DNA from: Isurus oxyrinchus
Lineage: Eukaryota
Direction of reading: 5' to 3'
Length of the DNA stretch: 64,000 nt
Assembly: GCA_026770705.1 (NCBI GenBank)
Contig: JANJGN010000189.1
Coordinates: 558,001 to 622,000, forward strand
A program made the translations under genes and the position numbers. The notes under the pieces were generated by a model. It had not been told where the DNA came from, made no database searches, and saw only the letters and a list, made by a program, of their open reading frames with translations. Within the stretch, counting starts at the first letter, position 1. Every line of letters begins with the position of its first letter. This document shows, piece after piece, positions 8,536 through 63,978 of this stretch.

Positions 8536-8544
8536 AATCACTGG

Positions 8545-9180: not shown

Positions 9181-9280
9181 TGTCCTCCTCCCCCTCTCTC
9201 TCCTGTACCTCTCTCTCTCTCTCTCCCTCTCCCTCAATCCTCCTCTCACTTTCTCCCTGATAAATTCTTTCTTTTTGCAG

Positions 9281-24581: not shown

Positions 24582-24704
24582 GTAAGAACAGACACCCTTC
24601 CATCTACATTAGCTAGAATGCTCTACATAGTACACTGCAAGATCCCACAACTGCATTGTGTTTAGCAACAAATCAATAGTCTTTAACTGATACAAATCCG
24701 CCTC

Positions 24705-25295
24705 TGACACTGCAGCAGTCCTTGAATACTGACTCTCCAACACTGCAGCACTCCCTCAGTACTGACCCTTTGACAGTGCAGCACTCCCTCAGTACTGACC
24801 CTTCAACAGTGCAGTGCTCCCTCAGTACTGACCCTCTGACAGTGCAGCACTCCCTCTGTACTGACCCTCTAACAGTGCAGCACTCCCTCAGTACTGACCC
24901 TTCGACAGTGCAGCACTCCCTCAGTACTGACCCTTCAACAGTGCAGTGCTCCCTCAGTACTGACCCTCCCACAGTTCAGCACCCCCTCAGTAATGACTCT
25001 TCGACAGTGCAGCACCCACTCAGTACTGACCTTCTGAGAGTGCAGCACATCCTCATTTCTGACCCTCCGACAGTGCAGCAACCCCTCTGTACTGACCATC
25101 AGACAGTGCAGCAGTCCCTATGTACTGAACCTCTGACAGTGCAGCACTCCCTCAGTACTGACTCTCTGACAGTGCAGCACTCCCTCAGTACTTACCCACC
25201 GACAGTACAGCACTCCCTCAGTACTGACCCTCTGACAGTGCAGCACTCCCTCAGTACTGACCCTCCCACAGTGCAGCACACCCTCAGTACTGAAC
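24705..25295. repeat. 33-bp SINE-derived minisatellite
   Basis: cagtgcagcactccctcagtactgaccctctga units. Confidence 0.95.
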
Positions 25296-25425
25296 TGAGG
25301 TGTCTGGCTGGATTATGGGCTTTGTGGTGAAAGAACCTATATTGATATCAAACCTTTCACATTCTCAGTGTCTTTCAAAGTGCTTCACAGTCAGTGTAAC
25401 TTAATTGATGTTTATTTGTTTTTAG

Positions 25426-25707
25426 ATGGACCACAGAATCTCTCAATTACTTCTCTTGATGTGATTAACGCTTCATCGATCAATATAATTGAGGGGAATT
25501 CTGCAGTGATAATCTGCTCTGTCGAGAGCTTCCCAGCTTCTAACCTGACGTGGCGACATCTTAATGTCCCAATGAACAGAACAAGTTCCAACAATGAGCT
25601 GTGGTTGGTGATTCCTCACGTTACATCCAGGGATACTGGAGAATATCTGTGTGTGGCAGAGAATGAACATGGAGCAGTGGAGGGATTCATAACCATCACT
25701 GTGGAAT
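25426..25707 (+). CDS. Siglec-like gene B, Ig C2/I-set domain 3 exon
   Basis: 282 nt, phase 1/1; EGNSAVIICSVESFPASNLTW...DTGEYLCVAENEHG. Confidence 0.95.
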
Positions 25708-25715
25708 GTGAGTTA

Positions 25716-25902
25716 NNNNNNNNNNNNNNNNNNNNNNNNNNNNNNNNNNNNNNNNNNNNNNNNNNNNNNNNNNNNNNNNNNNNNNNNNNNNNNNNNNNNN
25801 NNNNNNNNNNNNNNNNNNNNNNNNNNNNNNNNNNNNNNNNNNNNNNNNNNNNNNNNNNNNNNNNNNNNNNNNNNNNNNNNNNNNNNNNNNNNNNNNNNNN
25901 NN
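25716..25902. other. Assembly gap (Ns)
   Basis: Run of N in an intron. Confidence 1.
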
Positions 25903-26813
25903 GCACACAAACAAGCATTCATGTGCAATCCCACATGTGCACAGGTGTGTACACCTGCATGCACACACACAGAAGGAAACATACACAGAATCACACGTGT
26001 GCTTGCTCACACACACACAGACATGTGTGAGTTGTCTGTTCTCCCTGTGCTGCACTGGAGTGTTGCTCCAGATTCTGCTCTGAAACACTGATGACATCAG
26101 CTGAACAAGACCCTGTATTGGACGAGCAGCCCCCTGCACAGAGAATTGTAGGTTTATCACTCAATACCCCATTATTCTAAAGCAATTCCTCCACTGTCAA
26201 ATCCCTGTGAACATCCTGATGATGTGAAAGACACTTTCTTTTCTCCTAGCCCGACAGTGTCTCCTCTGGTGGAAGGCTGTAATTACAGCGTGACAGTTTA
26301 CATATCCACACGCAGCAAGAGCTGAGCAACACTCAGCTTGGGCTGAGAAATGACAAGTAACGTTCACACCACACAAGCACCAGGCAGTGATCATCTCCAA
26401 CAAGAGAGAATCTAACCATCTCCCCTTGATATTCAATCACTTTACCATCGCTGAATCCCCCACAATCAACATCCTGGGGGATGTTAACCAAACAACTAAC
26501 TGGACCGGCCATAAATACTGTGGCTACAGGAGCCGGTCAGAGGCTGGGAATTCTGTGGGGGTGAAAAACTCACCACCACCTCCTCAAGGGCAATTAGGGA
26601 TGGGTAATAAATGCTGGTCTAGATAGATACAGCCACTTCCCATGAATGTACAAAAAGAAAAACACCGGCAGTGACCATTATAAAAGTTGACATAGGAACT
26701 TAAAACAGGACAGAAACCTTGAAATGCACATAGGCACCAAATAGAGGGAGATGTATCATGGAGTCTTGCTGTGCACTGTGTTTGCTCACAATGAAACCTT
26801 TATTTGTATTTAG

Positions 26814-27095
26814 ATGCACCACGGAACCTATCAATTACTTCTCTTGGTGTGATTAACGCTTTATCGATCAATATAATTGAGGGGAATTCTGCAGTGATAA
26901 TCTGCTCTGTCGAGAGCTTCCCAGCTTCTAACCTGACGTGGCGACATCTTAATGTCCCAATGAACAGAACAAGTTCCAACAATGAGCTGTGGTTGGTGAT
27001 TCCTCACGTTACATCCAGGGACACTGGAGACTATCAGTGTGTGGCAGAGAATGAACATGGAGCAGTGGAGGGGTTCATAACCATCACTGTGGAAC
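26814..27095 (+). CDS. Siglec-like gene B, Ig domain 4 exon (near-identical to domain 3)
   Basis: 282 nt, phase 1/1; YAPRNL...DTGDYQCVAENEHG. Confidence 0.95.
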
Positions 27096-27129
27096 GTGAG
27101 TTACACAGAATTGAACATTCTGTTTTTAT

Positions 27130-28170
27130 TAGCTCATGGGATATGGGCATTGTTGACAAGGCCAGAAATTATTGCCCATCTGTAACTGCCCCTTGAGAAG
27201 GTGGTGGTGAGCTGCCTTCTTTAACTACTGCAGTCCATGTGGTGTAGGTACACCCACTGTGCTGTTAGGGAGGGAGTTCCATGATTTTGTCCCAGCGACG
27301 GTGAAGGTACGGCCGATATATTTCCAAATCTCATGGAAGACCAACACCACAAGTTCGCCTCCAAGTCACACACCACACTGACTTGGAACTGTCTTGGTGG
27401 AAGAGGTTAAGGGTTTGGAAGGTGCTGTCGAAGGAGCCTTGGTGAGTTGCTGCAGCACATTTTGTAGATGGTGCACACTGCGGCCATTGTGTGCCAGTGG
27501 TGGAGGGTATGAATGTTTATGCTGGTGGATGGGCTGTCGATCAAACAAGCTGCTCCTGGATGGTGTCGAGCTTCTTGAGTGTTGTTGGAGCTGCACTTAT
27601 TCAGGCAATTGGAGATTATTCCATCACACTCCTGACTTGTGCCTTGTCCGATGGTGGACAGGCTTTGGGGGGTCAGGAGTTGAATTACTCACCGCAGAGT
27701 TCCCAGCCTCTTACCCGCTCTTGTAGCCACATTATTTCCTGTTGCCGGGTTGTTGCCAGGGCCAATAGCCTTTGCTGTATCCAGTATCATCAGCTGATTC
27801 CTGATGTCACGTGGAGTCAATTGAATTGTCTGAAAGCTGACATCTGTGATGCTGGGACCCTCTGGAGGAGGCCGAGATGGAGCATCCACTCAGCACTTCT
27901 GGCTGAACGTGGTTGCCAATGCTTCAGCCTTGTCGTTTGCACTGATGTGCTGAGCTCCCCCATCGTTAAGGATGGGGATATTTGTGGAACATCCTCCTCC
28001 TGTTAGATCTTTAATTGTCCATCACCATTCATGACTGGATGTGGCAGGACTGCAGAGCTTAGATCTGACCCGTTGGTTGTGGGATCGCTTTGCTCTGTCT
28101 ATAGCATGTTGTTTCCGCTGTTTGGTGTGTATGTATTCCTGTGTGTCACCTCAGCAGCTTGGCACCTCTG
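27130..28170 (-). mobile_element. CR1/L2-group LINE fragments with internal deletions
   Basis: Same family as 12255-12695 and 55840-56930 (PSITDVSFQTIQLTPRDI...LDTAKA). Confidence 0.8.
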
Positions 28171-39320: not shown

Positions 39321-41250
39321 ATGGTGTTATCATCCCAGCTGATGTTACTACTGGGCAAGTCAGATCCCAGGGTGGAACTCAGCTTGATAGGTCCTAACTT
39401 TTATTTTTTATTTAGGAATGTGGAGTGCAGCTACTGAACAGAGTCTCAGGAATCATCTGATGAACTTCTAACAAAAGCATAACACATTTATTAAACGTGG
39501 AAAGACAAACTATATTACATTACTCCTTCACCCAGACCTATACCTTTACAGATTCATAAGTAGAACACAAATTACAATAGCTATCTTATACTCTCATGTT
39601 CACACTAAGTACACAGTCGATGTAAACCAACAGACGACCTGTGGTCAGGGACACCACACTCTTAAAGCAATTGACAAAACCCACTTGAAACAAATGCTAT
39701 GTCTCCCTCCTCATCTGACCCCAGATGCTTGTTACACTGTGAGCCAACCAGTCTCACTGAACTGAGATATCCATATGAGGGTTTCCAGTATCCACTCTTC
39801 AAGGACACGCTTTGGAATCTTCTCCAACATGACACTTTCACTCAGACACCTTCCACAAGGGTCCACTTTCACTATTTCAAACTCTCCTTCCCATGTTCCT
39901 GCCCCCTGGATCGCCACGTGCATTCAGCCTTCCTTCCACGCCCTGTCTCTCCAAAGCTCAGCCGTGTCAATGGAACACCATGGCTTCACATGGCCGTAGT
40001 AATGAGTCACCAACCTGTGGTGTCTCCTAGGATCTTCTGGCTTCTCGCAAGCCTATTTTGCTTTAGGCCTGTGTCCTGCTGCTTCTTCCTTTAAGCTTGA
40101 AGCCTTCTTCTGCTCCTCACTCTTAACTTCACTTAACAGGGCCTTTTCCAGATTTGACTAGAGGGTCTTCTTGGGCCCTTTCTCCTGTTCCACTCGATGG
40201 TTTTGGCTTCTTCTTTACTTTGGGACTGACTATCTGTCCCGCTCCTTTGCTGCTTCTCCTGGCAACTCCTTTCAACAGAACTGAAAGTACTTTTCTGTTT
40301 TTCTCGGTCTCTGTGGGTCCCTCCCTCTGGATCACTGTTGCTAGGCATCAGCACAGTTTCTTACGCCTTGTATTTCTCTTGACTTCCCTTCAAGAGACAT
40401 AAAACCTCAATGGAATGCTGGCTTCTTTTTAAGTCAAGTTCCCCCTTTTCTAAACACCCAAATACAGAAATACAAACTAAACTTGAACTTAAAGATAGAC
40501 CTTATGCCTAATGCACACAAATACACATAGAACTTACTTAAGCCAACTCCAGTTCCTAAAAATCACATGACACACTTCCCCTCGAGTGATGCCATGCTGC
40601 TGTCCCTGAAAGGCATATTACAGCAGTGTTATCACTTGGCAGGTGATGTGTGCCAGGCAGACCAAGTCCATGAGAGAAAGATGGTCACACGATCATAATG
40701 ATTTTGCAATTTGTATTTATTATGAGATGTGTGCACTGAATTCAGAAGCAATAATTACACCAAGACCTTTACAGATTTAAAACAATAAAGTAAAATATTT
40801 GTCATCAAAATAAAAGATTTCAAGCACATACATAAGACTACAATGACTGCTATAATAACTCCTAAAATTCCTAATTAACCTGACTCCCAGTTACACTCCC
40901 TTTAAGGCAACAGACCAAAAATAGATGTTAGATTTAAAACAAACTCAGCAAGTTAACCCAATGCCCTGGACAGTGGAATTCCAAATGGATTTTCCCCAAC
41001 TTCAGTTCTGTTGGATAGCGGGCTTGTGCACAAACAGGGTCCTGAGGACCATGAGCCAATGTAGAATGAACTAGTCCACTCCTGTGTCCAGGATTCTCTT
41101 CCATCCATTGTGAAACATTGGGGAGTTCCTTGTGTGTCCTGTAGATGGTCCACACTGCAGCCACTGTGCCCCAGTGATGGAGAGGGTGGATATCGAGTCT
41201 AGTGGATCTACAAACCATCCAGAGTTAAATATTGATATTTCTCTCCCCAG

Positions 41251-41628
41251 TTGGACTGTCACAAGAGTGGAAAGGTGACACTCCACGAGCGTTGACAGCA
41301 CAGGAAGGTTCGTGTGCACAGATTCCATGTCATTACAGTTATCCATCAGATTTGGTAAAGAAACGACATGTTGGAATCTGGTATATGAGAAGGTACATAC
41401 GGAACAAATATTCTAAATGGTCTGTAGCCTTTCACTCCAAGGATCACAGTCACGAGTTACCACAGTTCCACCATCGGAGCCGACTGTCTGGAGACCTGAA
41501 AGATGGCGACTGTTCCCTGATTATTAACAACATCAGATGGGAAGATGCCGGACGTTATTTGTTCACAATAAAATTTGACAATGGTCCGAGCCATAACTAT
41601 TACCCTGAAACCCAGCTTCACGTTTCTG
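41251..41628 (+). CDS. Siglec-like gene C, V-set exon a (intact frame, essential Arg replaced by Thr)
   Basis: 378 nt, phase 1/1; EGSCAQIPC...GDCSL...EDAGRYLFTIKF. Confidence 0.9.
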
Positions 41629-41709
41629 GTAAGTGCTGTGTTATAATTACTCAACAATTCACATCCAACACTCAATGGGAAATAATAGTGTTTGATTTGC
41701 TTGTTTTTT

Positions 41710-43790
41710 GGCCGTGTTAACCAGCGTCACTATTTTTAATGATTTGTCTATTTCTGCTCCCAGATCCATGAGCTTATTGTGTGTGATTGAATCCACATCA
41801 TAGCTGTAACGTAAACCGAGCTGAGGGGTGATGACACCTCCCCCCTGAGTGAAGTGTCTCCTCCCCACTACACCTTCCACCCCTCACACCGTCTGTGTAA
41901 ACCCCCGTCCCATCTCCAGCCTCTCTTTCCTCTCCAAAGTCCTGAACGTGTTCCATCTCCTGAATCCGTTCCCATCTTTCCCGGAACTCCATGTTTGAAT
42001 CCCTCCAATCAGGGTCCCACCCCAGCCACTGTGCTGAAACAGCTCTTATCAAGGTCACAAATGGCATCCTGTGTGACTGTGACAAAGGTCAACTTTCCCT
42101 CCTCGTCCTTCTCGATCTGTCTGCAGCCTTTGACACGCTCGACCACACCATCCTCCTCCAACACCTGTCCACTGTCGTCCAGCTGGGTGGGACTGCTCTC
42201 CCCTGGCTCCATTCTTATCCATCTCATCGTAGCCAGAGAATCACTTGCAATGGCTTTGCAGCATCATCTGAACAGTGTTACTTTTCACCTGTCCACTGAG
42301 GATCCCCAGCTCTACCTCACCACCACCTCTCTCGACTCCTCCACTGCTGCTAAATTATCAGGCTGCTTATCTGACATCCAGTACTGGATGGGCAGAAATT
42401 CCCTCCAATTAAATATTGGAAAGACTGAAGCCATTGTCTTCATTCCCCACTCCAAACTCTGTTCCCTCGCTACCAACTCCATTCCTCTCCCTGACAGCTC
42501 TCTGAGATTGAAGCCAATCTGTTCACAGCTTTGTTGTCCCATTTGATCCTGAGATGAGCTTCCAGCCTCATATCTGCGCCCTCACTAACACCGTCTATTT
42601 CCACCTCCGTAACATCGCACGACGTCACCCTGTCTCAGCTCATCTGCTGCTGAAACCCTCATCCACGCCTTCATTACCTCCAGACTCGACTGTTCCAACA
42701 CACGGTCTACACTCCATAAACTTGAGGCCATCCAAAACTGCTGACCACGTCCTTACTCACAGCAAGTCCCGTTCCCTCATCACCCGCTCTGCTTGATGAC
42801 CGAGACTGGCTCCTGATCAAGAAAAGTCTCAATGTCAAAATTTTCATCTTTGTTTCCTCACTATCTCTGTAATCTCCTCATCCTCCTCCAGTACCTACAA
42901 CCATCCCATTCTCTGTTACCTCTTCAAGCTTCTACCGCTTCCCTATATCTGTAAATTCATCCTGCCCCAACAAACCTACCAATCTCTGCAACCTCCTCCA
43001 GCCACTACAACCCTCCCTATTTCTGTAACTTCCTCCTGCCCCTAAAAGCTTCCCTATCTCTGTAGCCTGCTCCAGTCCTGACAACTTTCCCTGCCCCTGT
43101 AACCTGCCCCAGTCACTACAACCCTCCCTACCTCTGCAAACTCCTCCAGACCCTACACTCTCCCAATCTCTCTTAACTTTTCCAGCCGCTACAACCCTCC
43201 CTATCTCTGTAACTCCTCCAATCACTACAACCCTCACTATCTCTGTAACCTCCTCCAGCCCCTACAACCCTCCCTATCTCTGTAACTCCTCCAATCACTA
43301 CAACCCTCACTATCTCTGTAACCTCCTCCAGCCCCTACAACCCTCCCTATCTCTGTAACTCCTCCAGCCCCTACAACCCTCCCTATCTCTGTAACCTCCT
43401 CCAGCCCCTACAACCCTCCCTATCTCTGTAACTCCTCCAGCCCCTCCAACCCTCTGAGGTCTCTGCGCTTCTCCAATTCCAGCCTCTTGACCATCCTCCG
43501 ATCGCATCACTCTAACACCGGCGGCCGTGCCTTCAGTTGCCTGGGGCCTGAGCTCTGTAATACCCTCCCTCAACCCCTCTCCATCCCTCTCTCTTACTCT
43601 CTCTATCTCTCTCTCTCTCTCTCCCTATCCATTTCATCACCCTTTTAAGATTCTCCATAACACCGACATCTTCTGGTCAGCTGTCGCTAATATCTCCACA
43701 TGTGTCTGGGTGACATACTTTATTTTATGACGCTCCTGTATAGCACCTTGGGGTGATTTGTCATGTTAAAGTTGATGTGTACATATAAGT
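41710..43790 (+). mobile_element. L2 LINE RT and 3' end with internal 37-bp minisatellite (42860-43455)
   Basis: QSG..PSHCAETALIKVTN..LVLLDLSAAFDTLDH, PQLYL, LQLNIGKTE; L2 tail ggcggccgtgccttcag resumes after the array. Confidence 0.9.
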
Positions 43791-43924
43791 TGTTGCCCTT
43801 TGACCCTCGACCCCAGATTGATTCTTATTTTTGAGGGAATGTACAACCTCCTTAGATTTCTGACCAAAATGTCATTTGATTATTTTTATTGAGCGAATGC
43901 CAAGCCCCGATACCGAGCGAGAGC

Positions 43925-44290
43925 CTCCTCATTTGCTGAGTTTAAGGTGATGAGTCAGCCCCTTAGTCCGTAGAGGGGATTCTCCTCGGTAATGTGCAGC
44001 CTTGTTTGTGTCTCTCCACAAGCGCATGAGGGGTTTGTACAGCGGCTGCAGCGCTGGAGGGGGTCTGCACAGGGGTCCTGAACTGTCCTGAGCCGGTTTT
44101 AGCAAGGACCACTCTGGCCTTGGCAGCTGAAAGCCAGCCATTGGACAGACGGGGCCTGTCACAAGGAGCCTGTTAGTCACTCCCCACCGTGTTTCCTGTG
44201 CTCGGATCCAGACAATGTTGGCTGGTGGATCTGGCTCAGGAAGGGTCCTCCCCATGGGACCCCCAGATGGAAGGTGGGTCGAGCGGGTCA
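43925..44290 (-). mobile_element. Non-LTR retrotransposon C-terminal fragment (Vingi/I-group-like)
   Basis: GFQLPRPEWSLL followed, after a frameshift, by NRLRT...PSCACGETQTRLHI zinc-finger-like tail. Confidence 0.5.
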
Positions 44291-44344
44291 GTCACTTGCA
44301 TGTTTATTCTGCAGCTTTAATATTTTAAGATGGTAAGAATGTAG

Positions 44345-45133
44345 GAACATAAGAAATAGGAGCAGCAGAAGGCCATTCGGCCCCTCGAGCCTGCCCTCGC
44401 TGATCTGGTTGTGGCCTTAACTCCATTTTCCTGCCTGTCCCCCAAACTCTTGACTCCCTTGTCAATCAAAATCCTGCCTCACTCAGCCTTGAGTCTATTC
44501 AATGGCCCAGCCTCCACTGCTCTCTGGGGAAGAGAATTCCACAGGCTAGCGCCCCTCTGAGAGAGGAAATTCCTCCTCATCTCAGTCTTAAATGGGAGAG
44601 CCCTCATTCCGAAACTGTGCTCCCTGGTTCTAGATTCCCCCACGAGGGGGAAACATCCTCCCAGCATCCACCCTGTCAAGCCCCCTCGGAATCGGATATG
44701 TTTCAATAAGGTCACCCCTCATTCTTCTAAATTCCAATGGATACAGGCCCAACCTGCTCAACATTTCCTCACAGGACAAACCCTTTAATCCCAGGAATCA
44801 GCCCAGTGAAGCTTCTCTGAACTGCCTGTACACAATGATCCTGTTACAATCTCACTAATGCCCTGTGCAGCTGTTGCAAGACTTCCCTCCTTTTATACTC
44901 CATCCCTTTGCAATAAAGGCCAACATTCCACTTGCCTTCCTCATTCCATGGTTTTCCTGAATGCTGACTTTCTGTGATTCATGTACAAGGACACCCAGAT
45001 CCCTCTGTACTGCATTCTGCAGCCTGTCTCCAGTTAAATAATATTCTGTTTTTCTATTCTTCCTGCCAAAATAATTTGTTGCCATTCTCCTCAGTATTGA
45101 CCATCCCCCCAATTCAGCCTCATCTGTAAATTT
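44345..45133 (-). mobile_element. CR1 LINE 3' fragment
   Basis: FKTEMRRNFLSQR..LWNSLPQRAVEA, QRDLGVLVHESQK. Confidence 0.9.
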
Positions 45134-45190
45134 TGAGTCTAGTGGATCCACAAACCATCCAGAGATAAATATTGAGATTTCTCTCCCCAG

Positions 45191-45558
45191 TTGGACTGTC
45201 ACAAGAGTGGAAAGGTGACACTCCACGAGAGGTGACAGCTCAGGAAGGTTCGTGTGTACAGATTCCATGTCATTACAGTTATCCATCGTGTCTGGTAAAC
45301 CAACCGCGAGGTGGACTCTGGTTTAATAATGAGAAACAGATTCCCTGGGCTCCCATTGCCTTTCACTCCAAGGATCACAGTCACGAGTTACCACGGTTCC
45401 ACCATCGGACCGGCTGTCTGGAGACCTGAAAGATGGTGACTGTTCCCTGATTATAAACAACATCACACGGGAAGATGCAGGACCTTATTATTTCAGAATA
45501 GAATTTGACAATGGTCCGAGCCATAACTATTACCCTGTAACCCAGCTTCACGTTTCTG
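45191..45558 (+). pseudogene. Siglec-like gene C, V-set exon b (1-bp deletion, Arg retained)
   Basis: 368 nt; cggaccgg versus cggacccgg in gene B at about 45410 gives a stop at 45427-45429; downstream frame reads EDAGPYYFRIEF. Confidence 0.9.
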
Positions 45559-46873
45559 GTAAGTGCTGTGTTATAATTACTCAACAATTCACATCCAACA
45601 CTCAATGGGAAATAACACAAACTGTGACGTTTACACATTAACACAAAACACAGTTTATTATAACACACTGTCTGATTCTCAATAACCTAGTGATAGCTTC
45701 CAGTTCAGTCCTAAAGCAACCTCTAATACTCACTTTAATATCAATGATTAAATATATTGACTGTGTCCATCAATGTTATCAGGATATCCACTCCCATCAG
45801 TCTCCCTAATGCTTTTGAAATGTCTAACAATTTGACAAAAGAAGGATGTGCATTCCTATAGCGCCTTACACCACCTCAGCAAACTTCAAATCACTTCACA
45901 GACAATGAAGAAATTCTTGAAGTATAGTCACTGTCTAACGTGGCAGTGAGTTTGTGCACAGGAAGCTCCCACAGAGGGCAATGGGATCAGTGACCCAGAT
46001 CTCTGAGAGAATGATGAGCCAGGGTTCCATGAGCTGTGGGCTGCTCCATCACCCACACCCCGGTGTTGTCAATTCAAGGTTCTGGGAGTGAAAGTGTATT
46101 CAGCTCAGTGACACATTCCCCACCAAGTTTGAAAATAGGAAAGTTGCTGCTGATTGTTGTTACCTCTCAGTTCCCATCTCATCCTTGGAAACCTGCTTTC
46201 AAAATACAAAAGCAAGTCTCACATTTCCATAGCGCCTTTCACCACCTCAGGACGATCCTAAATCAATTCACAGCCAATGAAGTGATTCTTGAAGCACACA
46301 TTCTCCCCAGTCTCTGGGTAAAGAAGTTTCTCCTGAATTCCCCATTGGATTTATTAGTGAGGATGTTATATTGTCAGCCTCTGGTTTGGTTCATTGTGAG
46401 GAGTGGAAACACTCTCTCCATGTCTACTCGATCAAAACCTTTCATTACTTCAAAGGTCAAATGAGGTCACCCCTCAACCTTCTCTGTTCAAGAGAACAGA
46501 GACCCAGCCTGTTCAGCCTCTCCTGATAGGTAAAGCCTCACATTGCGGAGATCATCCTTGTGAAGCTTTTTACCACCCTCTCCAGTGTCTCCATATCCTT
46601 TTCCAAATGCTGAGTCTGTTCTCCCCGAGCTGTGAGCTGTTCCTCCACCCTCACCAAGTCTGGTCAAATCAAGGGTCACTGAGTGAGAGTGTATTAATCT
46701 GAGTGACAGAGATTCAACAAGTGTAAAAATAGACAATTCTTTAATGATCATTGTAACCTCTCAGTTCTGATATCTTCCTTTTAAAAGTGCTTTCTCGTGT
46801 GGGACTGTGGTTTCTATTTGAACTGATGCTTCACGTTATATTTCTCTAAAAGGATCCATTCTCTGTGTGTTTG

Positions 46874-47170
46874 ATTTCACAGATAAACCCACGATATTCC
46901 CTGCTGAAATTATTGCAGGAAAGCGTGTGGATGTAAGCTGCACCTTCAACACAACGTGCAATGGAACAGCAGCACCTGTCTTAACCTGGGACACTCCCAC
47001 TGACGTACCTGGATCAGTCTCAAACACTGTAACTCAGCATGGTGTCACTCTGACCTATACTTCTGTTCTGACCCTGATCCCATCACTCAAACACCACGGA
47101 CACACTCTCAGCTGCAGAGTGAGATATCCATCTGTTTCATCGAAGCGGACCCTCGTACTGACTGTGCTAT
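46874..47170 (+). CDS. Siglec-like gene C, C2-set domain 2 exon
   Basis: Paralog of 24285-24581; the acceptor AG is TG here, with an in-frame CAG acceptor 9 nt downstream (start 46883); donor GTAAGT at 47171. Confidence 0.85.
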
Positions 47171-47349
47171 GTAAGTACAAACACCCTTCATTCTACATTA
47201 GTTGGAATAGTATCAAATGTGCACAGCAAGCTCCCACATACTGCACTTTGTTTATAAACAAACCATTGGTATTTAACTGGTAAAAAGTGAGCCCTGACAG
47301 GCAGTACATCCTTACTACTGACTCTCCGATAGTGCATCATGGACTCATA

Positions 47350-49080
47350 GACTCATAGACACATAGACAGAAGGAGGCCATTTAGCCCATCATGTCCATG
47401 CTGGTCAGCAACTCCCTCCCCAAGTGCATCACCTCATATTTTTCCAGGTTGAATTCCATTTGCGTCGTGATCATTTCCCCTTTATATAAGTCCAATTCAT
47501 TTATATACACCACAAACAGCAAGTGCCCCAGCACTGAGCCCTGTGGAACCCCACTGGAAACAGACATCCAGTCACAGAAACATCCCTCCACCATCACCCT
47601 CTGCTTCCTGCCTCAGCCAATATTGGATCCAACGTGCCACTTTGCCTTGGATCCCATGGGCTCTTACTTTCTTGGCCTCTCTGCCAAGAGGCACCTTATC
47701 AAAAGCCTTCCTCAGCCCATGTCGACCACATCAAAGGCATTACTCTCATCAACACTCCTGGTGACCTCCTCAAAAGATTTGATCAGGTTTGTCAAACATG
47801 ACCTTCCCTTAACAAATCCATGCTGAATATCCCAGATTAATCCTTGTCTCTCCCAGTGCAGATTCATTCTGTCCTTCAGAATTCTTACTAGTAACTTCCT
47901 CACCACCGAGGTTAGACTGACTGGCCTGTAATTTCCTGATCTATCCCTTCCTCCCTTTTTTAATAATGGGACAACATTAGCCATCCTCCAGTCCTCTGGC
48001 ACCTCACCTGTGGCCAGAGAGGATTTGAAAATTACTGCCAGGGCCCCTGATATCTCTTCCCTTTCCTCCCTCAACAGCTTGGATTCATCTCATCGGGGCT
48101 TGTGGATTTATCCACTTTTCAGGTCGCTAAACCCACTAGTACCTCCTCTCTCTGTGTTAATTTCCTCTCATATTTCACTGCCCTCCACCCTGATGTTATA
48201 CCTGCATCATCCTTTTCCATTGTGAAGACTGATGCAAAGTATTCATTGAGGACTGTACCCACGTCTTCCAGGTCCACACACACATTACCTCGATGGTCCC
48301 TAATCAGCCCCACTCTTTCCCGAATTATTCTGCTGCTCTTTACATATTTAAAAAACCCCTCTGGGTTTTGCTTTATTCTACTCACCAGTGCTTTCTCATG
48401 CACTCTCTTATCTTTCCTAATGTACTTTTTCAGTTCCCATCTGCACTATTTATACTCCTCTAGGGACTCTGCTGTATTGAGCCCTCAGTATCTGCCATAA
48501 GCTTCTCTTTTTTCTAAATCTAAACCTTTATGTTCCTTGTCTTCCAGGGTTCTCCAGACTTGGTCTCCCTCTTTGTCTTTACAGGAAGATATCTGCTCTG
48601 TACTCTCGCTATTCCCTCCTTGAATGCCTCCCACTGCTCTGACACAGTTTTATCTGCAAAGAGCTTCTCCCAGTCCACTTGGGCCAAATCATATCTCATC
48701 TTAGTAAAATTAGCCTTTCCCCAGTTTAGAATTTTTATTCCCAGCCCAAACTTATCCTTCTCCATAACTGTCCTAAATCCAATTGAGTTACAGTCACTAT
48801 CTCCCCTACTGATACGCTTTCCACCTTCCCCGGCGCTTTTCCATATATTAGGTCCAGAACTGTCCCCTCCCTTGTTGAGCTTTCTATGCACAGGCTAAAA
48901 ATCTTCTCCTGGATGCAACTTCAGAATTTTTCTCCCTCCCTACCTTGCTCACTAAAGCTGTCCCAGTTAATATTTGGGTAGTTAAAATCCCTGAGTATTA
49001 CTGCTTTATTATTCTTGCACATCTCTGAAATGTGATCACATGTTGGATTGTCCATCTCTCCCTGACTGTTTGTTGGTTTT
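47350..49080 (-). mobile_element. CR1 LINE ORF2 (endonuclease-RT, internally deleted)
   Basis: GEVPEDWRMANVVPL...NYRPVSLTS...QHGFVKGRSCLTNL, SGVPQGSVLG. Confidence 0.95.
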
Positions 49081-49151
49081 ATATCTTGAGTCTATGAGTT
49101 CACTGGTTGAGTAAATTCGAATTGCACTCCTTCATATACACTTGTTAGTTG

Positions 49152-49358
49152 ATAAAAACAAAAAAACTGCGGATGCTGGAAATCCAAAACAAAAACAGAA
49201 TTACCTGGAAAAACTCAGCAGGTCTGGCAGCATCGGCGGAGAAGAAAAGAGTTGACGTTTCGAGTCCTCATGACCTCAGTTCTGTCGAAGGGTCATGAGG
49301 ACTCGAAACATCAACTCTTTTCTTCTCCCCCGAAGCTGCCAGACCTGTTGAGTTATTC
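49152..49358. mobile_element. Penelope-type palindromic element with hammerhead-like core
   Basis: About 64-bp inverted arms (49212-49275, 49291-49354); possible TSD ttagttgat/ttagctgat. Confidence 0.65.
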
Positions 49359-49629
49359 TTAGCTGATGCTCGCTATCAATAACCAAGAGAGACCTACATT
49401 AGAACAAGCTGATTATTTATTGTAACAGAGGGCAGAGCACTAAATCCTTGCATGCTCCCACAACCACCTCCAGCTCTAGACTTACAGTTAACCAGTGGCC
49501 CACACTGTCCAGTGATTGGTCAGTACTGTCACATGGTTTATCCACTTGTATTCTCTTAAAGGTACCTGGCACTCCACATTATCACAGGAGGCCTATAGTA
49601 CACACATAACAGCGTGTTTGCCTCCTCAG

Positions 49630-50035
49630 CACTGACCCTTCTACAGTGCAGCACTCCCTCATTACTGTCTCTCTAATAGTGTAATGATCCCTCAGTAGTG
49701 CTCCTCCAACATTGCACTGGTCAATCAGAACTGACGCTCTGACTGTGCAGTTTTACCTCAGCAGTAACCCTCCTACAGTGCAGTGCTCCCACAGTACTGT
49801 CCCTCCTACAGTGCAGCACTCCCTCAGGACTGACCCTCTGACAATGCAGCACTCCCTCAGTACTGAACCTCTGGCAGTGCAGCACTCCCTCAGTACTGAC
49901 TCTCTGACAGTGCAGCACTCCCTCAGTACTGACCCTCTGACAGTGCAGCACTCCCTCAGTACTGACTCTCTGACAGTGCAGCACTCCCTCAGTACTGACC
50001 CTCTGACAGTGCAGCACGCCCTCAATACTGAACTG
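49630..50035. repeat. 33-bp SINE-derived minisatellite
   Basis: Position equivalent to 24705-25295 in gene B. Confidence 0.9.
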
Positions 50036-50163
50036 AAGTGTCTGCCTGGATTACGGGCTATGTGGTGAAAGAACCTACATTGACATCACACCTTTCACAT
50101 TCTCAGTGTCTTTCAAAGTGCTTCACAGTCAGTCTAAGTTAACTGATCTGTATTTGTTTTTAG

Positions 50164-50445
50164 ATGCACCACGGAATCTCTCAATTACTTCTCCAGATAT
50201 GATTAACGCTTCATCAATCAGTATAATTGAGTGGAATTCTGCAGTGATAATCTGCTCTGTCGAGAGCTCCCCAGCTTCTAACCTGATGTGGCGACATCTT
50301 AATGTCCCAATGAACAGAACAAGTTCCAACAATGAGCTGTGGTTGGTGATTCCTCACGTTACATCCAGGGATACTGGAGAATATCAGTGTGTGGCAGAGA
50401 ATGAACATGGAGCAGTGGAGGGATTCATAACCATCACTGTGGAAT
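50164..50445 (+). CDS. Siglec-like gene C, Ig domain 3 exon
   Basis: 282 nt, phase 1/1; YAPRNL..AVIICSVESSPASNLMW..DTGEYQCVAENEHG. Confidence 0.9.
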
Positions 50446-52150
50446 GTGAGTTACACAGACTTTAATATTTCTCTCATCTCCGAACACATATACTCAGATG
50501 CTCTCCCACGCACACACACACACAAGCACTCACAAATGTACAAACCCAAAGTGCATGCACACACACAATCCCACACTCATGAGCACACAGAAAGACACAC
50601 TCACACACAAACACAGTAGTACACACTTCCCTGTGAGTTACCTGACCTCCCTCAGTACTGCACTGGAGAGTTCTCCTGGATTCTGGGATATGTGTTCCCA
50701 TTCATATTTATCGAAGAATATCCAAATTACAAAGTCTATTCCAGAAACTCACATGCACAAAGATTCCAACAGATACTCCCCACCTCTCCGTGTCTCTCTC
50801 TCCTCCTTTAAGAAGCTTCCTAATCCCGAACTCTTGCCTGCCCTAACTCCTCCTTATCATGCCCTGTGTCAAATTTTTTGTGTATCTGAGAGAAAGGGAG
50901 AGATAAGGAAGTTTAGGAAGGGATTTCCTGTTAGTGAAGAGCTTACTTCTTTTTCTCACCTTTCCAGTGTTCAGTTTTGCCATCATGTCCAATGACCCTG
51001 TTTATAATGGGGGCATCCTATGTAAACGTCACACTGTCTTTACATCCTCCCACCAGTGGTGGCACTGTGGTGCTTAAGCTTGCACCTCCCAGCTTTTCAG
51101 CCAACTTCACTTCACAATTTGCGACACATGCTGTAAGGTCATCAAAATTAACATATATCAAATGGTAGATTTGATAATACAGTTTATTGAAAGGTTCATC
51201 CGCGCTCTGGGAAGGGTTTACACTCTCCAGGAAGCAAAAATAGGCTGGATGTTGGAGAGTTCATCTTTTCCCAGAGAGTAGGGATCCTCGGGAATGTGCT
51301 GTCAGTGGGTGTGGTGGTTGCTGTCTCTCTGTTGCCTTCAAGAGGGATCTGGAGTGGTTACTAACTCGGGGAGAGATCATGGAAGCGGAGAATGGTACAG
51401 CACAGGAGGAGGCCATTCAGCCCATTGAGCCTGTGCCAGGTCTTTCAATGTTCTATCCAATCAGATCCACTAACCACCACACCACTTTGCCCCCATCTTC
51501 TTCCTTCAAGTGTTTATCCAATTTCCCTTTTGAAAGTTCCTATTGAATCTGCTTCCACTGCCCTTTCAGGCAGCACCTTCCAGATCACAACAACTCGCTC
51601 TGTCAAAACAAATTCTCCTCATCTCCCCCTCCGGTTCGTCAATCTGTGTCCCTCTGGTTACCGACCCTCCTGCCCCTTAAATACATCGATACTGTTCACC
51701 TCAACCACTCCCTGTGGGAGCGAGTTCCACATTCTCCCCTCTCTCTGGGTAAAGATTGGAACTGTTTATTAAGTGGGGCGTGTAAGTCCGTGGGGGAGTC
51801 CATCTCGATCCTGCCCGATTCGCACACGCGTCCGAGATGGATTTCCACCCTGCACTAAACGTTTCCAGAATTTTCTACAGCACAATCCTGTACACAGCGA
51901 TGGAGAGAAACATTGGACAGGGAGTCCAACAGCACAATGATCCATTCTCACCAATGTTCCACGCTAAGGGGAAAGTTCCGATTGTCCACTCTTAGAGTGT
52001 TTACAATGAAAACATTCATTCCACATTGAATCCCAGTGGATGGGTCAATATTACAGCAAATGTTGCAATGATATGAAGCTTGATTGTTCAGCCAGAGTGA
52101 GAGATTGAAAGCGGAGAGTCAGTGATGATTTCTTTCTGTGTGTTCTCTAG

Positions 52151-52323
52151 ACAGTGGAGGAGAGATCCTGATCCTGGGAATACGAGCTGTGATTTTCCTT
52201 GTGGCTGTGGTTATCACTATCTTCTGGAGTCTGTGTCTGGGAGAGACAAACAGTGAAAGGAAGTCGACAGACTGTTTGAAGCTTTGTACAGCAACAATCT
52301 GGTCAGTCAGTGCGGACAAATAA
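52151..52323 (+). CDS. Siglec-like gene C, TM plus short tail exon with intramembrane Arg
   Basis: Acceptor ttctctag, phase 1; YSGGEILILGIRAVIFLVAVVITIFWSLCLGETNSERKSTDCLKLCTATIWSVSADK-stop. Confidence 0.75.
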
Positions 52324-56930: not shown

Positions 56931-58759
56931 CATCTGGAATGCGAAGCTAGTCTCAGTAATGGTGACCATGAAACTAAGGCCAATTGTTGCAAAAACCCAT
57001 CTGGGTCACTAATGCCCTTTGGGGAAGGAAACCTGCCGTCCTTACCCATTCTGGCCTACGTGTGACTCCTGACCCACAGCAATGTGGTTGACTCTTAACT
57101 GGCCCCTGAAATGGCCGAGCAAGCCACTGAGTTATATCAAAACCCGCCACAGACCAGTCAAACCAGGTGAACTGCAGCACTTCGAAAAGGCAGCTCAGCA
57201 CCCCCTTCTCAAGGGGTCAGTCAGGAACAGGTAACAAACGCTGTCCACATCCCGTGAAAGAATTTTGGTAAAAAGGTAGCCGTGTATCACCACCCACGCC
57301 CAGCGCCAACCCCCCCACCCCTACCTGATTGCACCAGTTTCAGATTACACCAGGTCAATGAACGGATAGAAACCCAAACCAATGAGATGAGCACAGAGAA
57401 GGATCAAGCCAGAGAGAGTTGGTGGGAAGAATTGGGAAAGCAACAAAAAAGGCAGAGCGGACACTAACACTATAACAAAGTAAAGACCAGAGGAGGAAGG
57501 AAGCAAGTGTGAAGAGGAATTGAGAGTAGAGCTGGTAGGCTGCTTGTCGAAGCCAAGGAACCTCCATTGGGCACATCCACAGTGCTGTTGGGGAGGGTGA
57601 TACATGATTTTGACCCAGGATCATCAAGTGTTGCACTTGCAGAGCCTTTAAAGTAAAGGAACCTTTACTACCCATGCACCCCCCCCGCCCTACAAAGCTG
57701 TTGACCTGCTGTACAGGCAACCTCCAGACAGTTGGCTACAGAGGCCATTGTAGCTGCTGAATATGACTTCCAGTTTCAAACCCTTCATGAATGCAAGGAT
57801 GGAGAATTCAGCAGGAATATTCCTGCACACCCTGTGGCAGATCCTGTAAATAAAAGGGACCTTCACTCACTCCCCAAAGCTGCTGACCTGCTGATTCACA
57901 TCTACAGGCAACCTCCAAATAGTCAACTAGAGAAGACAACGCAGCTGCTGAATGTGACTCCTAGTTTTAAACCCTTCACTCTGGAAAGAAGGAATCCAGT
58001 GCAATGGCCTCAGTATGATTCTTCACAGAAACTGATTTTAAATCTCATGTCTAAGTATTATTTTTCCTTTGCTTACATTTTAATCCCTGCACCTGATGGC
58101 TTTATCGCTTCACTTAAGTAACTTTCAGCAGGAGCCAGGTTCAAATTGAATGGACAAGCAGGCTTGGGGGGCCAAAAGGCCTACTCCTGCTTCTGTTTAT
58201 TTATGTTTGTGTTGTTATGTAGTGGAACTAGAGAGGTTATAGCAGTTATGAGAGCATTAAGCAAACAGCAGCAAGAATTGAACACCTACTTTGTGGTTTA
58301 TGAAAAGGTTTTCAACCTGGTCGACTGGTAAAATCTGTTGAAAGTGGGCTATCATGGCGTGTGGCCTTTGTGAGATATTTGTAACAAGGTTCTCGATGTC
58401 GGAACAGCTTGCATTGAACAAAGCTGATCTTTACCCAGAACTTCAGAGGAAGGAGGGACAATTGTTCCCTGGTGTGGGGGGCATGGTGGGGGGGGAGGGT
58501 GAGGGGGAGACAAGTAGCCTGAAATACCAAGCCAGACACTTTGTGAAGACAAAAGCTGTTTATTCATTTTTTTTCACAAATCATAATCTTTACAATTAAA
58601 GTCCCGACAAGATAATGGTGAATCATGAACACATTGTCGGGGTGAATCTGTGCCCGGGAGCATAAAGCAACAAAATCAGGAGCCCGCTTTACATCTCTCT
58701 GAATTTTAACTATCATTAACCCCAGTAACATCCATTCAAATGACTTAGTCATAAGATTC

Positions 58760-59395: not shown

Positions 59396-59512
59396 CTAAT
59401 ATCTACAGCAGAGACCACAAGTCTCATTTGGTTCTCTCCAATTACAGCAGTTACAGCAGAATCTGCAGAGCTGCTGTCTGCCCATTCTCTTCTGGCGCTG
59501 CAGCAAGGAGCC
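59396..59512 (-). CDS. HAMP: Hepcidin exon 3 (GSLLQRQKR/MGRQQLCRFCCNCCNWREPNETCGLCCRY-stop)
   Basis: Acceptor tcttcctgcttttccag, phase 0; furin site RQKR; 8-Cys pattern C-x2-CC-x-CC...CG-x-CC diagnostic of hepcidin. Confidence 0.95.
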   Translation of the reverse strand, partial: GSLLQRQKRMGRQQLCRFCCNCCNWREPNETCGLCCRY

Positions 59513-60488
59513 CTGGAAAAGCAGGAAGACAATAGGTGAGAACATTCCGGAAAGAAAGAAGGCATCATTTCAATCAGGCGTGTCATTGGAAGGAGGATGG
59601 CGCATTTCTCTAGCGCCTTTCCCCTCCTCAGGATGGCCCAAAGTGTTCCACAGCTGAAGGAAGGACTTTTTCTGAAGTGAGCTCACCGCTGTAATGTAGA
59701 AAACGCAGCAGGCAATTCACGCACAGCAAGATCCCACAAACAGAAATGTGATAATGGCCCCGATTTTCAGTTTTTTACCAATGTCAGTTGAGGGATAAAT
59801 GTTTGCCCCAGGAAAGCAGACATAACTCCACCCCATCCAGCCCCCACCACCCCCTCCACACATACCCCCCAACTCCTGACGCACTTCATCTAAATTGTGG
59901 CCATGGAATCCTCTACATCCATCTGAGAGGGCAGATGTTGTCTCAGTTTAACATCTCATCTGAAAGACAGCGCCTTCAACAGTGCAGCACCCCCTCAGTA
60001 CTGACCCTCCGACTGTGCAGCACTCCCTCAGTACTGACCGTCTGACAATGCATCACCCCCTCAGTACTGACCCTCCGACTGTGCAGTCCCCCGCCGGGAC
60101 TGACCCTCTGACAGTGCAGCACTCGAAGACTGACCGTCTGACAATGCAGCACCCCCTCAGTACTGACCCTCCGACTGTCATGCCCCCCCGCCGGTACTGA
60201 CCCTCCGACAGCTCGGTAATTTCTCAATTACGCCTGGTGGTCCTTTTAACTCAGAGCTGAGAGTTGCAGAGAATCGAGCAGACACCCTGAACTGACACTT
60301 GCAGTGCAAGTACTGGGAGCGCGCTGGTCATTATCATGCTGCTGTCTGTGGGATCTTACAGTGCGCCAATGGCTGATTCTTTTCCCACAGTACATCAGTG
60401 ACCTCACATGAAAGAAAAAAAGCACTTGATTGTCTGCGAAACAGTTTGGGACGTCCTAATGTGTTGGAAGGCGCTAGAGAAATGCAAG

Positions 60489-60637
60489 AGTTGACGTTTC
60501 GAGTCCTCATGACCCTTCTGAGGACTCGAAACGTCAACTCTTTTCTTCTCCGCCGATGCTGCCCGACCTGCTGAGTTTTTTCAGGTAATTCTGTTTTTGT
60601 TTTGGATTTCCAGCATCCGCAGTTTTCTTTGTTTTTA
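60489..60637. mobile_element. Penelope-type short insertion with 14-bp TSD in HAMP intron 2
   Basis: TAGAGAAATGCAAG at 60475-60488 and 60638-60651; single empty site in the paralog near 10596-10609. Confidence 0.85.
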
Positions 60638-61912
60638 TAGAGAAATGCAAGTCCTCTTTGTCTTTCACTCGATCCTCTAAGGTGTCTGTTGATTAACCAG
60701 CCTCTCGGTGTATGATGTAGGCCTGGTTATAAACAGTTAGAAGGATCAAATATCAAAAGTGCTTTGGCTGACAGTCAAACCGATTGTGCATTCGGAGAGA
60801 TTAGATATGGTCTGCGCACAATGACTCCAGTCTCTGGCACTGACTGCCGCCTGGGGTCTCCCTTCCACATAACACTCACAACTTGCATTTACACAGCGCC
60901 TCTGACATTGCAAAATGTCCCAGCCCACATTACCGGAGCGTAAATCAGACAGAAGTCTAACACTGAGTCACATATGGAGATATTAGGGATAGGTGACCAA
61001 AAGCTTGGTCAAAGATGTCAGTTTTTAAGGACCGTCTTAAAGGAGAGAGAGAGAGAGAGGCAGAGAGGTTAAGGGAGGGTATTCCAGAGCTCAGGGCCCC
61101 AGGCAGCTGAAGGCACGGCCACCAATGGTGGAGCGATGGGAATCAGGGGGACCCGGGAGATGCAGTAATGTCAGAGATTTTGGAGGAACATCGGGACCGG
61201 AGGAGGTGTTCTCCTGCTCCATATCTCTCTCTCTCTTCCTCTCTTCCACTCCTCCTCTCCCTGTCTCTCTCTCTCCTACTCTTCCGCTCAATTGCCCTCT
61301 CTTCCAATCTTTCTCTCCTCTCTCCCTTTTCCTGTCTCTCTCCCTCTCTCTCCCCTGTCTCCTTCTCCCACTCTGTATCTCTCCCTCTCTCTCACACTAT
61401 TTTTGTACCTTTCGCTCACTCTGTAACTCTCCCTTTCCTGTTAATTTCTCTCTCTTGGACAATCTCTCTTCTCTTTTCACTTTCCCTCACTCTGCATCTC
61501 TTCTTTAATTTCTCCCTCTGTCACTCTCTCCCACCTATGTTCTTTCCCTTTCACCCCTCCCCGTCCCACTCTCTGTCTCTCTCTTCCAATCCCTCCCTCC
61601 CCCATTCCATCCCTCTCTCCGACTCTCGACTCCCAGCCTCTCTTTAACCCACTCCCAGGCTGGATCAGTCTCCCTCTCACTATTCCCGGCGTGGGTTACA
61701 TTTAAAATTCCTGTGGGGATATGTTCACTTCCTTGGAATTGCCTCTTCCCAGCTTTGCAAAAAAAGGGGGGGCGGGGGGGTCTCGATTTCAAACATGCCT
61801 CCTGAGTATAACCGAGACAGACTGCCACTGAAATCAGCTTGAAATCAGAAAACTTTCTGTGGAAGAAACGAGCAGGGAGAAACCTTAAAATAAGGAATGA
61901 ATTTCCACCTAC

Positions 61913-61969
61913 CGTGTCCGGGGAATCCACAGATTTCTCAATCGTCGAAGAACCTAAAGCAGTGTCAAC
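61913..61969 (-). CDS. HAMP: Hepcidin exon 2 (VDTALGSSTIEKSVDSPDT)
   Basis: 57 nt, phase 0/0, canonical AG/GT, joins exons 1 and 3 in frame. Confidence 0.9.
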
Positions 61970-62374
61970 CTGCAAAAAGAAAGAATTTATCAGGGAGAAA
62001 GTGAGAGGAGGATTGAGGGAGAGGGAGAGAGAGAGAGAGAGAGGTACAGGAGAGAGAGGGGGAGGAGGACAGACTTGCATTTCTCTAACGCCTTTCACCA
62101 CATCCCAAAGCATTTCACAGCCACTGAAGGATGTTTTTGAAGTGCACTCACACTGTAGGAAATGTGGCAGCTGATTTGTGCACAGCAAGATCCCACAAAT
62201 AGCAATGTGATCATGGCCTAGATCATCTGTTTTTGGTGATGTTGGGTGAGGGATAAATATTGGTCCCAGGACACCGGGGAGAACTCCCCCCTGCTCTTCC
62301 TCCAAATAGTGGCTGTGGGATCTTTCACACCCGCCCGAGAGGGCAGACGGGGGACTCGGTTTAATGTCTCATTC

Positions 62375-63610
62375 AACATTGTTGTGCTCCCTCAGTACTA
62401 ACCCTTTGACACTGCAGCACTCCCTTAGTATTAACCCTTCGATAGTGCTGCGCTCCCTCAGTACTGTCCCTCCGTCAGTGCAGCTCTATTTCAGTACTAA
62501 CCCTTCGACACAGCAGCACTCCCTCAGTACTAACCCTTCGATAGTGCTGCACTCCCACAGTATTGTCCCTCCGTCAGTGCAGCGCTCCCTCAGTACTGAC
62601 CCTCCGACACAGCAGCACTCCCTCAGTACTGACCTCCGACAGTATAGCACTCACTCAGTACTGTCCCTCCAATAGTGCAACACTTCCACACTACTGACCC
62701 TCTGACAGTGCAGCACTCCCTCAGCACGGAGTGTTGACCGACGTTATGGGACTGAATTCCCTGGAGTGAGACTCAGACCAGAGATTTAGGTAGGGTTGTT
62801 CCGGCTGGAGGAGGTTACAGAGATAGGGAGGGTTGTAGAGGCTGTAGGAGGTAACAGAGATATGGAGGGTTCTAGAGGCTGTAGGAGGTGACAGAGATAG
62901 GGAAGGTTGTAGGGGCTGTAGGAGGTTACAGAGATAGGGAGGTGAGTAGGGGCTGTAGGAGGTTAAAGAGATGGGGGGGGTTGTGGGGGCTGGAGGAGGT
63001 TACAGAGGTAAGGAGGGTTGTAGAGGCTGGAGGAGGTTACCAAAATAGATACTGCTGTAGGGGCCACAGTAGGTTACAGAGATAGGGAGAGTTATAGTGT
63101 GGAGAGGACGTTATAGAGTTCATGAGCATTGTAGGGGCTGGAGGAGGTTACAGTGATTCTGAGGGTCGTGGGGCCTGGAGGAGGTTACAGAGATAGGGAG
63201 GGTTGTAGGGTCTGGAGGAGGTTACAGAGATAGGGAGGGTTGTAGGGTCTAGAGGAGGTTACAGTGATCATGAGGGTTGTGGGGCCTGGGGGAGGTTACA
63301 GAGATAGGGAGGTTTATAGGGGCTGGAGGAGGTTACAGAGATAGGGAGGGTTGTAGGGGCTGGAGGAGGTTACGGAGATAGGGAGTGTTGTAGGGGCTGG
63401 AGGAGGTAACAGAGATAGGGGCAGTTGTAGGGGCTGGAGGAGGTTACAGAGATAGGGAGGGGTGTAGGGGCTGGAGGAGGTTACAGATATAGGGAGGGTT
63501 GTAGCGGCTGGAGGAGGTTACAGAGATAGGGAGGGTTGTAGGGGCTGGAGGAGTTTACAGAGATAGGGAGGGTTGTAGGGGCTGGAGGAGGTTACAGAGA
63601 TAGGGAGTCG
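62375..63610. repeat. 33-bp and 37-bp minisatellite arrays in HAMP intron 1
   Basis: Mirror of 7355-8880 with different copy numbers. Confidence 0.9.
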
Positions 63611-63808
63611 CTGAGGAGGGATTGAAAACAAGAATGAGAATTTCAGGGGAAATGACAGAAGGAAATGATGTTAAATTCATAGAGGGCAACAATATTAAAG
63701 GCACGAACATAATAATATCAAACTGCGGAAGTGACCAGTCTATCTGGGTGGTAGATGTAGAGTCATGTGCAAGAAACACCTCACCCAGAGGGACATCTCT
63801 TAGCTTAC

Positions 63809-63886
63809 CCTCGACAAGGAGAAGAAGTGACTCAGCTGCAGGGAGAGCAGCAAAGTCAGAGTGAACAAGACAAGTCGCCATTTCAT
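63809..63886 (-). CDS. HAMP: Hepcidin exon 1 (signal peptide MKWRLVLFTLTLLLSLQLSHFFSLSR)
   Basis: ATG at 63886, hydrophobic leader, phase-0 donor GTAAGC; completes an 83-aa prepropeptide. Confidence 0.9.
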
Positions 63887-63972
63887 CTGGGAGCTTCCCA
63901 TCTCTGCCTGTCTCTTCTGATCTTCTGGCTCTGCTTTGATGCTTTGGTTTGTAACTAGAGGAGCTTCCTGCT

Positions 63973-63978
63973 CTTATA
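63973..63978 (-). promoter_or_regulatory. TATA box of hepcidin
   Basis: TATAAG 92 bp upstream of the ATG, same as 6977-6982. Confidence 0.65.

Follow-up and report, generated by a model that had tools for sequence, protein, structure and literature searches.

Does a hepcidin that has lost its N-terminal histidine still serve as an iron hormone, or has it taken up another role? The question is raised by a gene on the minus strand of a 64,000-nucleotide stretch of the genome of the shark Isurus oxyrinchus (contig JANJGN010000189.1, positions 558,001 to 622,000; hereafter the window). We think it rather probable that this gene is an intact member of an 89-copy array, derived from a hepcidin with histidine at mature position 3 (His3) and amplified among Siglec genes, and that the array peptides are host-defence peptides which no longer act as iron hormone. 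As far as the sequences indicate, the array is large, young and adaptively diversified; its N-terminus and its N-glycosylation sequon appear to be specific to it, and its long loop ordinary for sharks.

The window hepcidin and its copies

Enumeration of splice models on the minus strand gave a three-exon prepro-hepcidin with exclusively GT-AG splice sites as the best-scoring model. The coding part of exon 1 (63809..63901) encodes the signal peptide and has an intact GT donor; exon 2 (61913..61969) adds 19 codons of propeptide; the coding part of exon 3 (59396..59512) comprises the propeptide end, the RQKR furin motif (59486-59497), the mature peptide and the stop codon. This hepcidin-type organisation (signal, propeptide, RXXR site with mature peptide) agrees segment by segment with NCBI models of shark hepcidins, and the NCBI isoforms P0010 and P0011 depart from the hepcidin frame precisely where the exon 2 segment ends. 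The mature peptide described in the initial annotation was found at 59399..59485: 29 residues behind RQKR, with an eight-residue loop containing the sequon N-E-T (59420..59428) and eight cysteines, at the C-terminus of the product, in hepcidin spacing. The Pfam check proposed there was likewise positive, the spliced product scoring 31.8 bits with the hepcidin profile PF06446 (E 1.8e-7, curated cut-off 27). The product length of 83 amino acids has to be corrected, as it starts from a second ATG (63886); an in-frame ATG lies upstream at 63901 and probably opens a precursor of 88 amino acids, matching the start of the RefSeq models for basking shark and catshark. The closest protein retrieved for the window hepcidin is that of the basking shark. 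The sole match of the exon in the PDB was a fish hepcidin (1S6W, E 0.26), and an AlphaFold model of the peptide (pLDDT 51, pTM 0.19) is too poor to use for fold or structure search.

Exon 3 of the window gene matches 89 places in the genome at 73-100% identity (all 92 candidates were scored). Weak matches on contigs C13, C11 and C151 (E 0.9-5.7) were dropped; C13, the one that was read, contains no exon match. The 89 peptide exons lie in both orientations on 14 contigs of 0.18-4.2 Mb, 13.8 Mb in total, with 30 copies on contig C52 and 20 on C71. After examination of 8 kb around each of the 88 other copies, 43 of the 89 were classified as intact (three exons, canonical splice sites, open frame, eight cysteines). 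These 43 genes encode 21 mature peptides, the window type being the commonest (14/43), and RQKR is retained in 34 of them; of all 89 copies, 22 have RQNR or HQNR as furin motif (equivalent of window position 59489), which may slow processing. A search with exon 1 returned 130 candidates, of which 40 were scored, and the window itself carries a second, partial copy on the plus strand (7054..9337) whose exon 1 (7054-7146) and exon 2 (9281-9337) are identical to those of the main gene and which lacks exon 3; partial copies therefore add to the count. On C52 many copies stand in head-to-head pairs 29-41 kb apart, an arrangement that suggests inverted units which would favour gene conversion.

An array of this kind could mostly be an assembly artefact built from few real genes. 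Its dispersal over 14 contigs would fit such an origin, and so would the five pairs of copies at no more than 0.2% mismatch, every one of which joins different contigs; both haplotypes may thus have been assembled, and the haploid copy number lies between 30 and 89, perhaps at about half of 89. Against this origin, 30 copies lie on a single contig. The median mismatch between copies is 4.2% (7046 ordered pairs), the same within and between contigs, so most of them are not redundant assemblies; copies on one contig differ by a median of 4.3% and also in intron length. When near-identical copies are merged at 0.1-0.5%, 87-81 groups remain (long alignments were lacking for two loci with exon 3 only). 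We regard an artefact as very improbable.

Descent from His3 hepcidins and diversification

Two further hepcidin genes are located 31 kb apart on contig C34. Their mature peptide, MSHLSICMYCCGCCNKKGTKKTCGYCCKL, keeps His3 followed by a hydrophobic residue and has an eight-residue loop without sequon; it differs at 2/29 residues from the basking-shark and at 3/29 from the catshark peptide. The pair is flanked by a Siglec gene on one side and by FFAR-like receptor genes on the other. In mammals, HAMP and FFAR genes adjoin (PMC4453067; this and other papers given by PMC identifier are cited from excerpts), and C34 is likely the ancestral, iron-type locus (Siglec-HAMP-FFAR). The 100 kb that were read contained no USF2, and LSR sits on other contigs. 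The array keeps only the Siglecs of this neighbourhood; FFAR-like genes are not amplified (three matches on C34, one on C2). One FFAR-like receptor, at C34:15265273 (L108:4643-5654), is split over two frames and has an open twin, 86% identical, 27 kb away.

Introns and flanks of the array are 91-92% identical to those of the genome's own His3 genes, the non-coding difference outside long tandem repeats being 8.1-8.9% (183/2252 and 202/2269). By this comparison the array is derived from the ordinary His3 pair, and the same identity led us to reject descent from the percomorph teleost HAMP2 duplication; the excerpts of PMC6240063 report HAMP2 from Percomorphaceae and Ovalentaria only. The HAMP2-like and lineage-specific character suggested in the initial annotation is supported; the gene is not an orthologue of teleost HAMP2. 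In the mature part, 30/87 bases differ between array and C34 (Fisher P 1.7e-11 and 1.3e-10 vs non-coding sequence), changing 17/29 residues, that is 17 of the 21 non-cysteine positions, and 7/54 residues differ in signal and propeptide. The P values, here and below, are descriptive, since the copies share ancestry and exchange sequence. As the C34 peptide matches that of the catshark, it is the branch to the array on which the change took place. A grouping of the basking-shark gene with the array, based on two shared residues, was discarded because this gene is closer to C34 (4 vs 7 of 54 differences).

The loop shows a different history. It was initially taken as atypical, yet a loop of the same eight residues in length is present in the genome's His3 hepcidins and in the basking-shark and catshark proteins; published shark hepcidins with this loop were what the initial annotation itself had named as removing its novelty. 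A second catshark hepcidin, XP_038669797.1 (P0009), has a changed N-terminus, a four-residue loop and a near-identical prepro part. It represents a small, separate divergence of a duplicate, and loop length varies within sharks.

Promoter homology between array and C34 is lost some 110 bases before the ATG. Beyond this point the array promoter joins sequence that at C34 is situated about 11 kb farther upstream (window 64000; L110:290-2509; L102:5961-8167), through either a promoter deletion in the array or insertions on the C34 side. A TATA-like box of the window gene (63973..63978, minus strand) is shorter by one base than its counterpart in the C34 genes. A promoter motif scan gave one GGCGCC in three array copies and none at C34, a result that is not interpretable. 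At the other end of the window gene, the sole AATAAA within 1 kb past the stop (58559..58564, minus strand) is a candidate poly(A) signal.

Among the copies, the mature peptide is the rapidly diverging part. In 86 in-frame copies its nonsynonymous diversity (piN) is 0.051 and its synonymous diversity (piS) 0.009, and 23 of 24 alleles change an amino acid (P 0.035). Counted by region, common alleles amount to 18 over the 87 mature sites and 87 over 2294 non-coding sites; the 150 sites of exons 1-2 have none. The overall diversity of the mature segment (0.042) is higher than in all 62 other 87-base segments outside tandem repeats and is exceeded by 15 segments inside tandem repeats. All eight cysteines are kept in 84/86 copies, both cysteine-substituted copies being already splice-dead, and the six N-terminal residues are the most variable part, two of them being deleted in seven copies. 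Four gametes are present in about half of close site pairs, both in non-coding sequence (222/432 within 100 bp) and in exon 3 (58/119), which indicates pervasive gene conversion; this would spread new peptide variants and dead splice donors alike. Shuffling targeted at the peptide was considered and rejected, as non-coding sites are shuffled equally. In our reading, the array peptides diversify by birth-and-death together with gene conversion, under pathogen-driven selection, as a parallel to teleost HAMP2.

Possible roles of the array peptides

The patch by which human hepcidin binds ferroportin consists of His3, Phe4, Ile6 and Phe9 (PMC7915682). At these positions the C34 peptide has His, Leu, Ile and Tyr, and the window peptide Arg, Gln, Leu and Phe. 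Loss of the His-bearing N-terminus, noticed initially in the window gene, extends to all intact copies of the array: none of the 43 has His3, and the HAMP1-type combination of His3 with a hydrophobic residue 4 is missing. Tyr9 is replaced by Phe and Tyr25 by Leu or Ile, which parallels the difference between croaker HAMP1 and HAMP2 (peptides in PMC6240063). In sea bass, hamp1 regulates ferroportin and the hamp2s are antimicrobial (PMC8502971); in both sea bass and croaker, iron is the task of one hamp1 gene and several hamp2 peptides are mainly antimicrobial, some of them inactive against bacteria (PMC8502971, PMC6240063). It is because of these parallels, the loss of His3 and the two tyrosine replacements, that we favour a host-defence role. 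Iron control would then stay with the C34 pair, and the array peptides would be cut by furin, adopt the hepcidin hairpin fold and probably be glycosylated by STT3B.

The N-E-T sequon, rightly singled out as distinctive at the start, was newly gained on the array branch. It is kept in 86/86 in-frame copies, and neither the C34 pair nor the proteins P0005-P0009 have it; its invariance is weak evidence because 9 of the 21 non-cysteine positions are invariant among the copies. It is placed next to a cysteine, 10 residues from the C-terminal end. In human cells STT3B modifies NXT sites at the extreme C-terminus with high efficiency, the closest engineered site found in excerpts of that study, 14 residues from the end, being used less efficiently (PMC3613688). 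This efficiency makes N-glycosylation of the array peptide plausible.

Several observations weigh against host defence. To begin with, 46/89 copies look disabled, 36 of them through one common change of the exon-1 donor from GT to TT (equivalent of window position 63808), which is unlinked to the peptide variants 4.4 kb away; the other defects, in overlapping categories, are absence of exon 1 or 2 from the stretch read (11), frameshift (3) and loss of the exon-3 acceptor (2). Diversity of the mature part is equal in donor-dead (0.048) and donor-intact (0.046) copies, and codons compared between array and C34 give pN/pS of just 0.36/0.29 (17 synonymous sites, many multi-hit codons). The weak point of this reading is the net charge, which is 0 to +4 (25/43 at +2) vs +5 for the C34 peptide, and a glycan could lower it further; such values, though modest, would be compatible with an antimicrobial role. 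Croaker HAMP2s with fewer arginines had no antibacterial activity, and one croaker HAMP2 still raised macrophage iron (PMC6240063). Finally, residues 6 and 9 of the ferroportin patch remain hydrophobic in most array copies.

The disabled half of the array, enlarged by the partial copies that the exon-1 candidates imply, would be expected if Siglec amplification was selected and the hepcidins were carried along and decay, their peptide having changed once early and the present variation being noise spread by conversion. Four-gamete conflicts as common in non-coding sequence as in exon 3 agree with this, as does the distribution of Siglecs. The Siglec V exon of the window has at least 150 relatives with 83-100% amino acid identity (best 150 of 1062 candidates), and 146 of these 150 lie on hepcidin contigs; they occur on C52, C71, C121, C150, C189 and eleven smaller contigs, 8/150 contain an internal stop, and they are more diverged than the adjoining hepcidins. 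Among the same best 150, a V exon is found within 50 kb downstream of 54/89 hepcidins and within 15 kb of 24. Judged by these matches, a very large Siglec expansion lies beside the array. Mere carriage, on the other hand, does not explain why the density of common variants in the mature part is about five times that of non-coding sequence and exons 1-2 have none, why these variants almost all change an amino acid and spare cysteines, or why diversity of the mature segment tops the 62 segments outside tandem repeats (15 within repeats being higher). We consider it unlikely.

Alternatively, ferroportin binding might persist in the array peptides, which would tune iron supply by acting as weak agonists or by competing with the C34 hormone and blunting its effect. 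Hydrophobic residues 6 and 9, the window Phe9 matching human hepcidin, would suit such a function, and so would the macrophage effect of a croaker HAMP2 (PMC6240063) and a net charge that fell rather than rose. His3 is gone from every intact copy, though; the first six residues are the most variable ones and in seven copies have lost two, and we would not expect 21 variants to be driven by a host receptor that is itself conserved. This reading seems to us quite unlikely.

The same sequon that makes glycosylation plausible invites another proposal, in which the glycopeptides signal to a new receptor, possibly the co-amplified Siglecs, so that ligand, with a sialylated N-glycan, and receptor diversify together. 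In its favour, the gained sequon is invariant though neighbouring residues 16, 18 and 19 vary, STT3B would serve such a C-terminal site (PMC3613688), and one window Siglec retains the arginine for sialic acid. This is Siglec-like gene A (22867..27196, plus strand), which has V-set, C2-set and further Ig exons, is partly under N, and whose arginine aligns with that of Siglec-5. Siglec-like gene B (41229..52322, plus strand; V-set, C2-set, Ig and a candidate membrane exon), which converges on the hepcidin gene, lacks this arginine in its V exon (41229). With 9/21 positions invariant, moreover, three invariant residues in a row say little, and hepcidin and Siglec are already neighbours at C34, so that their co-amplification needs no functional link. 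The proposal appears improbable to us. We rate just as low its extended form, a combinatorial library of glycosylated peptides in which dozens of hepcidins and well over 100 Siglecs make up one multi-megabase immune amplicon shuffled by conversion, with sialylated hepcidins as Siglec ligands or decoys.

The candidate membrane exon of gene B (52151-52322, plus strand) has an arginine inside its hydrophobic span and encodes a short tail, a combination that is a feature of activating receptors; a membrane exon of this type was not found in the other loci examined. Both hepcidin copies have a divergent V-set-like frame some 5 kb upstream (window 1832-2197, plus strand; L110:5518-5925, minus strand). 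The long low-complexity repeat at window 29919-31500, with open frames of 300-440 codons, is present at C34 too and does not represent genes.

Searches and comparison with known hepcidin systems

Read coverage across all contigs was taken from four runs whose RNA origin is a guess. In run X5, depth was 13.5 and 23 in the bins that contain exon 1, 22.3 in that of exon 2 and 2.45 in that of exon 3, with zero depth in two repeat-free intron bins; in runs X7, X8 and X15, the bins of the first two exons and of the mature peptide had zero depth. No splice joint was seen in these data, in which repeats filled the joint table and array-type reads are indistinguishable from C34-type reads. A protein word search with the window exon-3 frame gave no candidate, and a search of 1.84 billion representative sequences gave four matches, all low-complexity repeats and no hepcidin. 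The protein collection searched, with evidently thin shark coverage, returned no array-type protein. No report of a shark hepcidin array was found in the open PMC and bioRxiv literature, where genome-paper supplements could hold a gene-family count. Hepcidin was detected in nurse-shark plasma (PMC9207270) and is mentioned in passing elsewhere (PMC6795676, PMC3832898), with nothing on copy number in the excerpts. For teleosts, 3-5 hepcidin copies are given in four species, with five hamp2 names in croaker (PMC6240063), and a table in a mudskipper paper gives 1-5.

The split between iron hormone and defence peptide has been described as a peculiarity of spiny-rayed fishes that involves a handful of copies. 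Here a cartilaginous fish appears to have repeated it on a roughly tenfold scale, with two identical residue changes. With a conserved C34 peptide and 21 natural variants of one scaffold, it becomes directly testable which residues switch a ferroportin ligand to an antimicrobial. The analysis also exposes a 13.8-Mb hepcidin-Siglec region whose array form was not returned by protein databases.

Nearest to the window gene are the hepcidins of basking shark (XP_078389754.1) and catsharks (XP_038670190.1 and XP_072325013.1), which have the same 88-amino-acid precursor in three segments and share with the window peptide Met at mature position 1, the eight-residue loop and the cysteine spacing. They are near-identical to the C34 pair and keep Ser-His-Leu and a Lys-rich loop without sequon, whereas the window peptide differs at 17/29 residues. 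The human hormone hepcidin-25 and other HAMP1 hormones (PDB 1M4F, 6WBV) have in common with it the eight-cysteine pattern, the furin motif and Phe9; the window peptide departs from human hepcidin-25 by Arg and Gln at the His3 and Phe4 positions and by a loop twice as long. A comparable expansion is known from chicken FFAR2, which belongs to the HAMP-USF2-FFAR neighbourhood of mammals and has reached 26 paralogues in one lineage (PMC4453067), but there another gene multiplied, and FFAR-like genes are not amplified in this genome. Teleost HAMP2 (croaker, PMC6240063; sea bass, PMC8502971; hybrid bass, PDB 1S6W) offers the closest parallel: one iron-type gene stands beside several diversified paralogues without His3, CRFCC starts the cysteine core, an aliphatic residue precedes the last cysteine pair, and positive selection acts on multiple copies with an excess of amino acid change, as in the array. 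Unlike it, the array would have arisen independently, from the shark's own HAMP1-type gene, and it counts 30-89 copies vs 3-5 in teleosts, with a longer loop, a sequon, a lower charge and Siglecs interleaved. The array would thus represent an independent and much larger parallel to teleost HAMP2.

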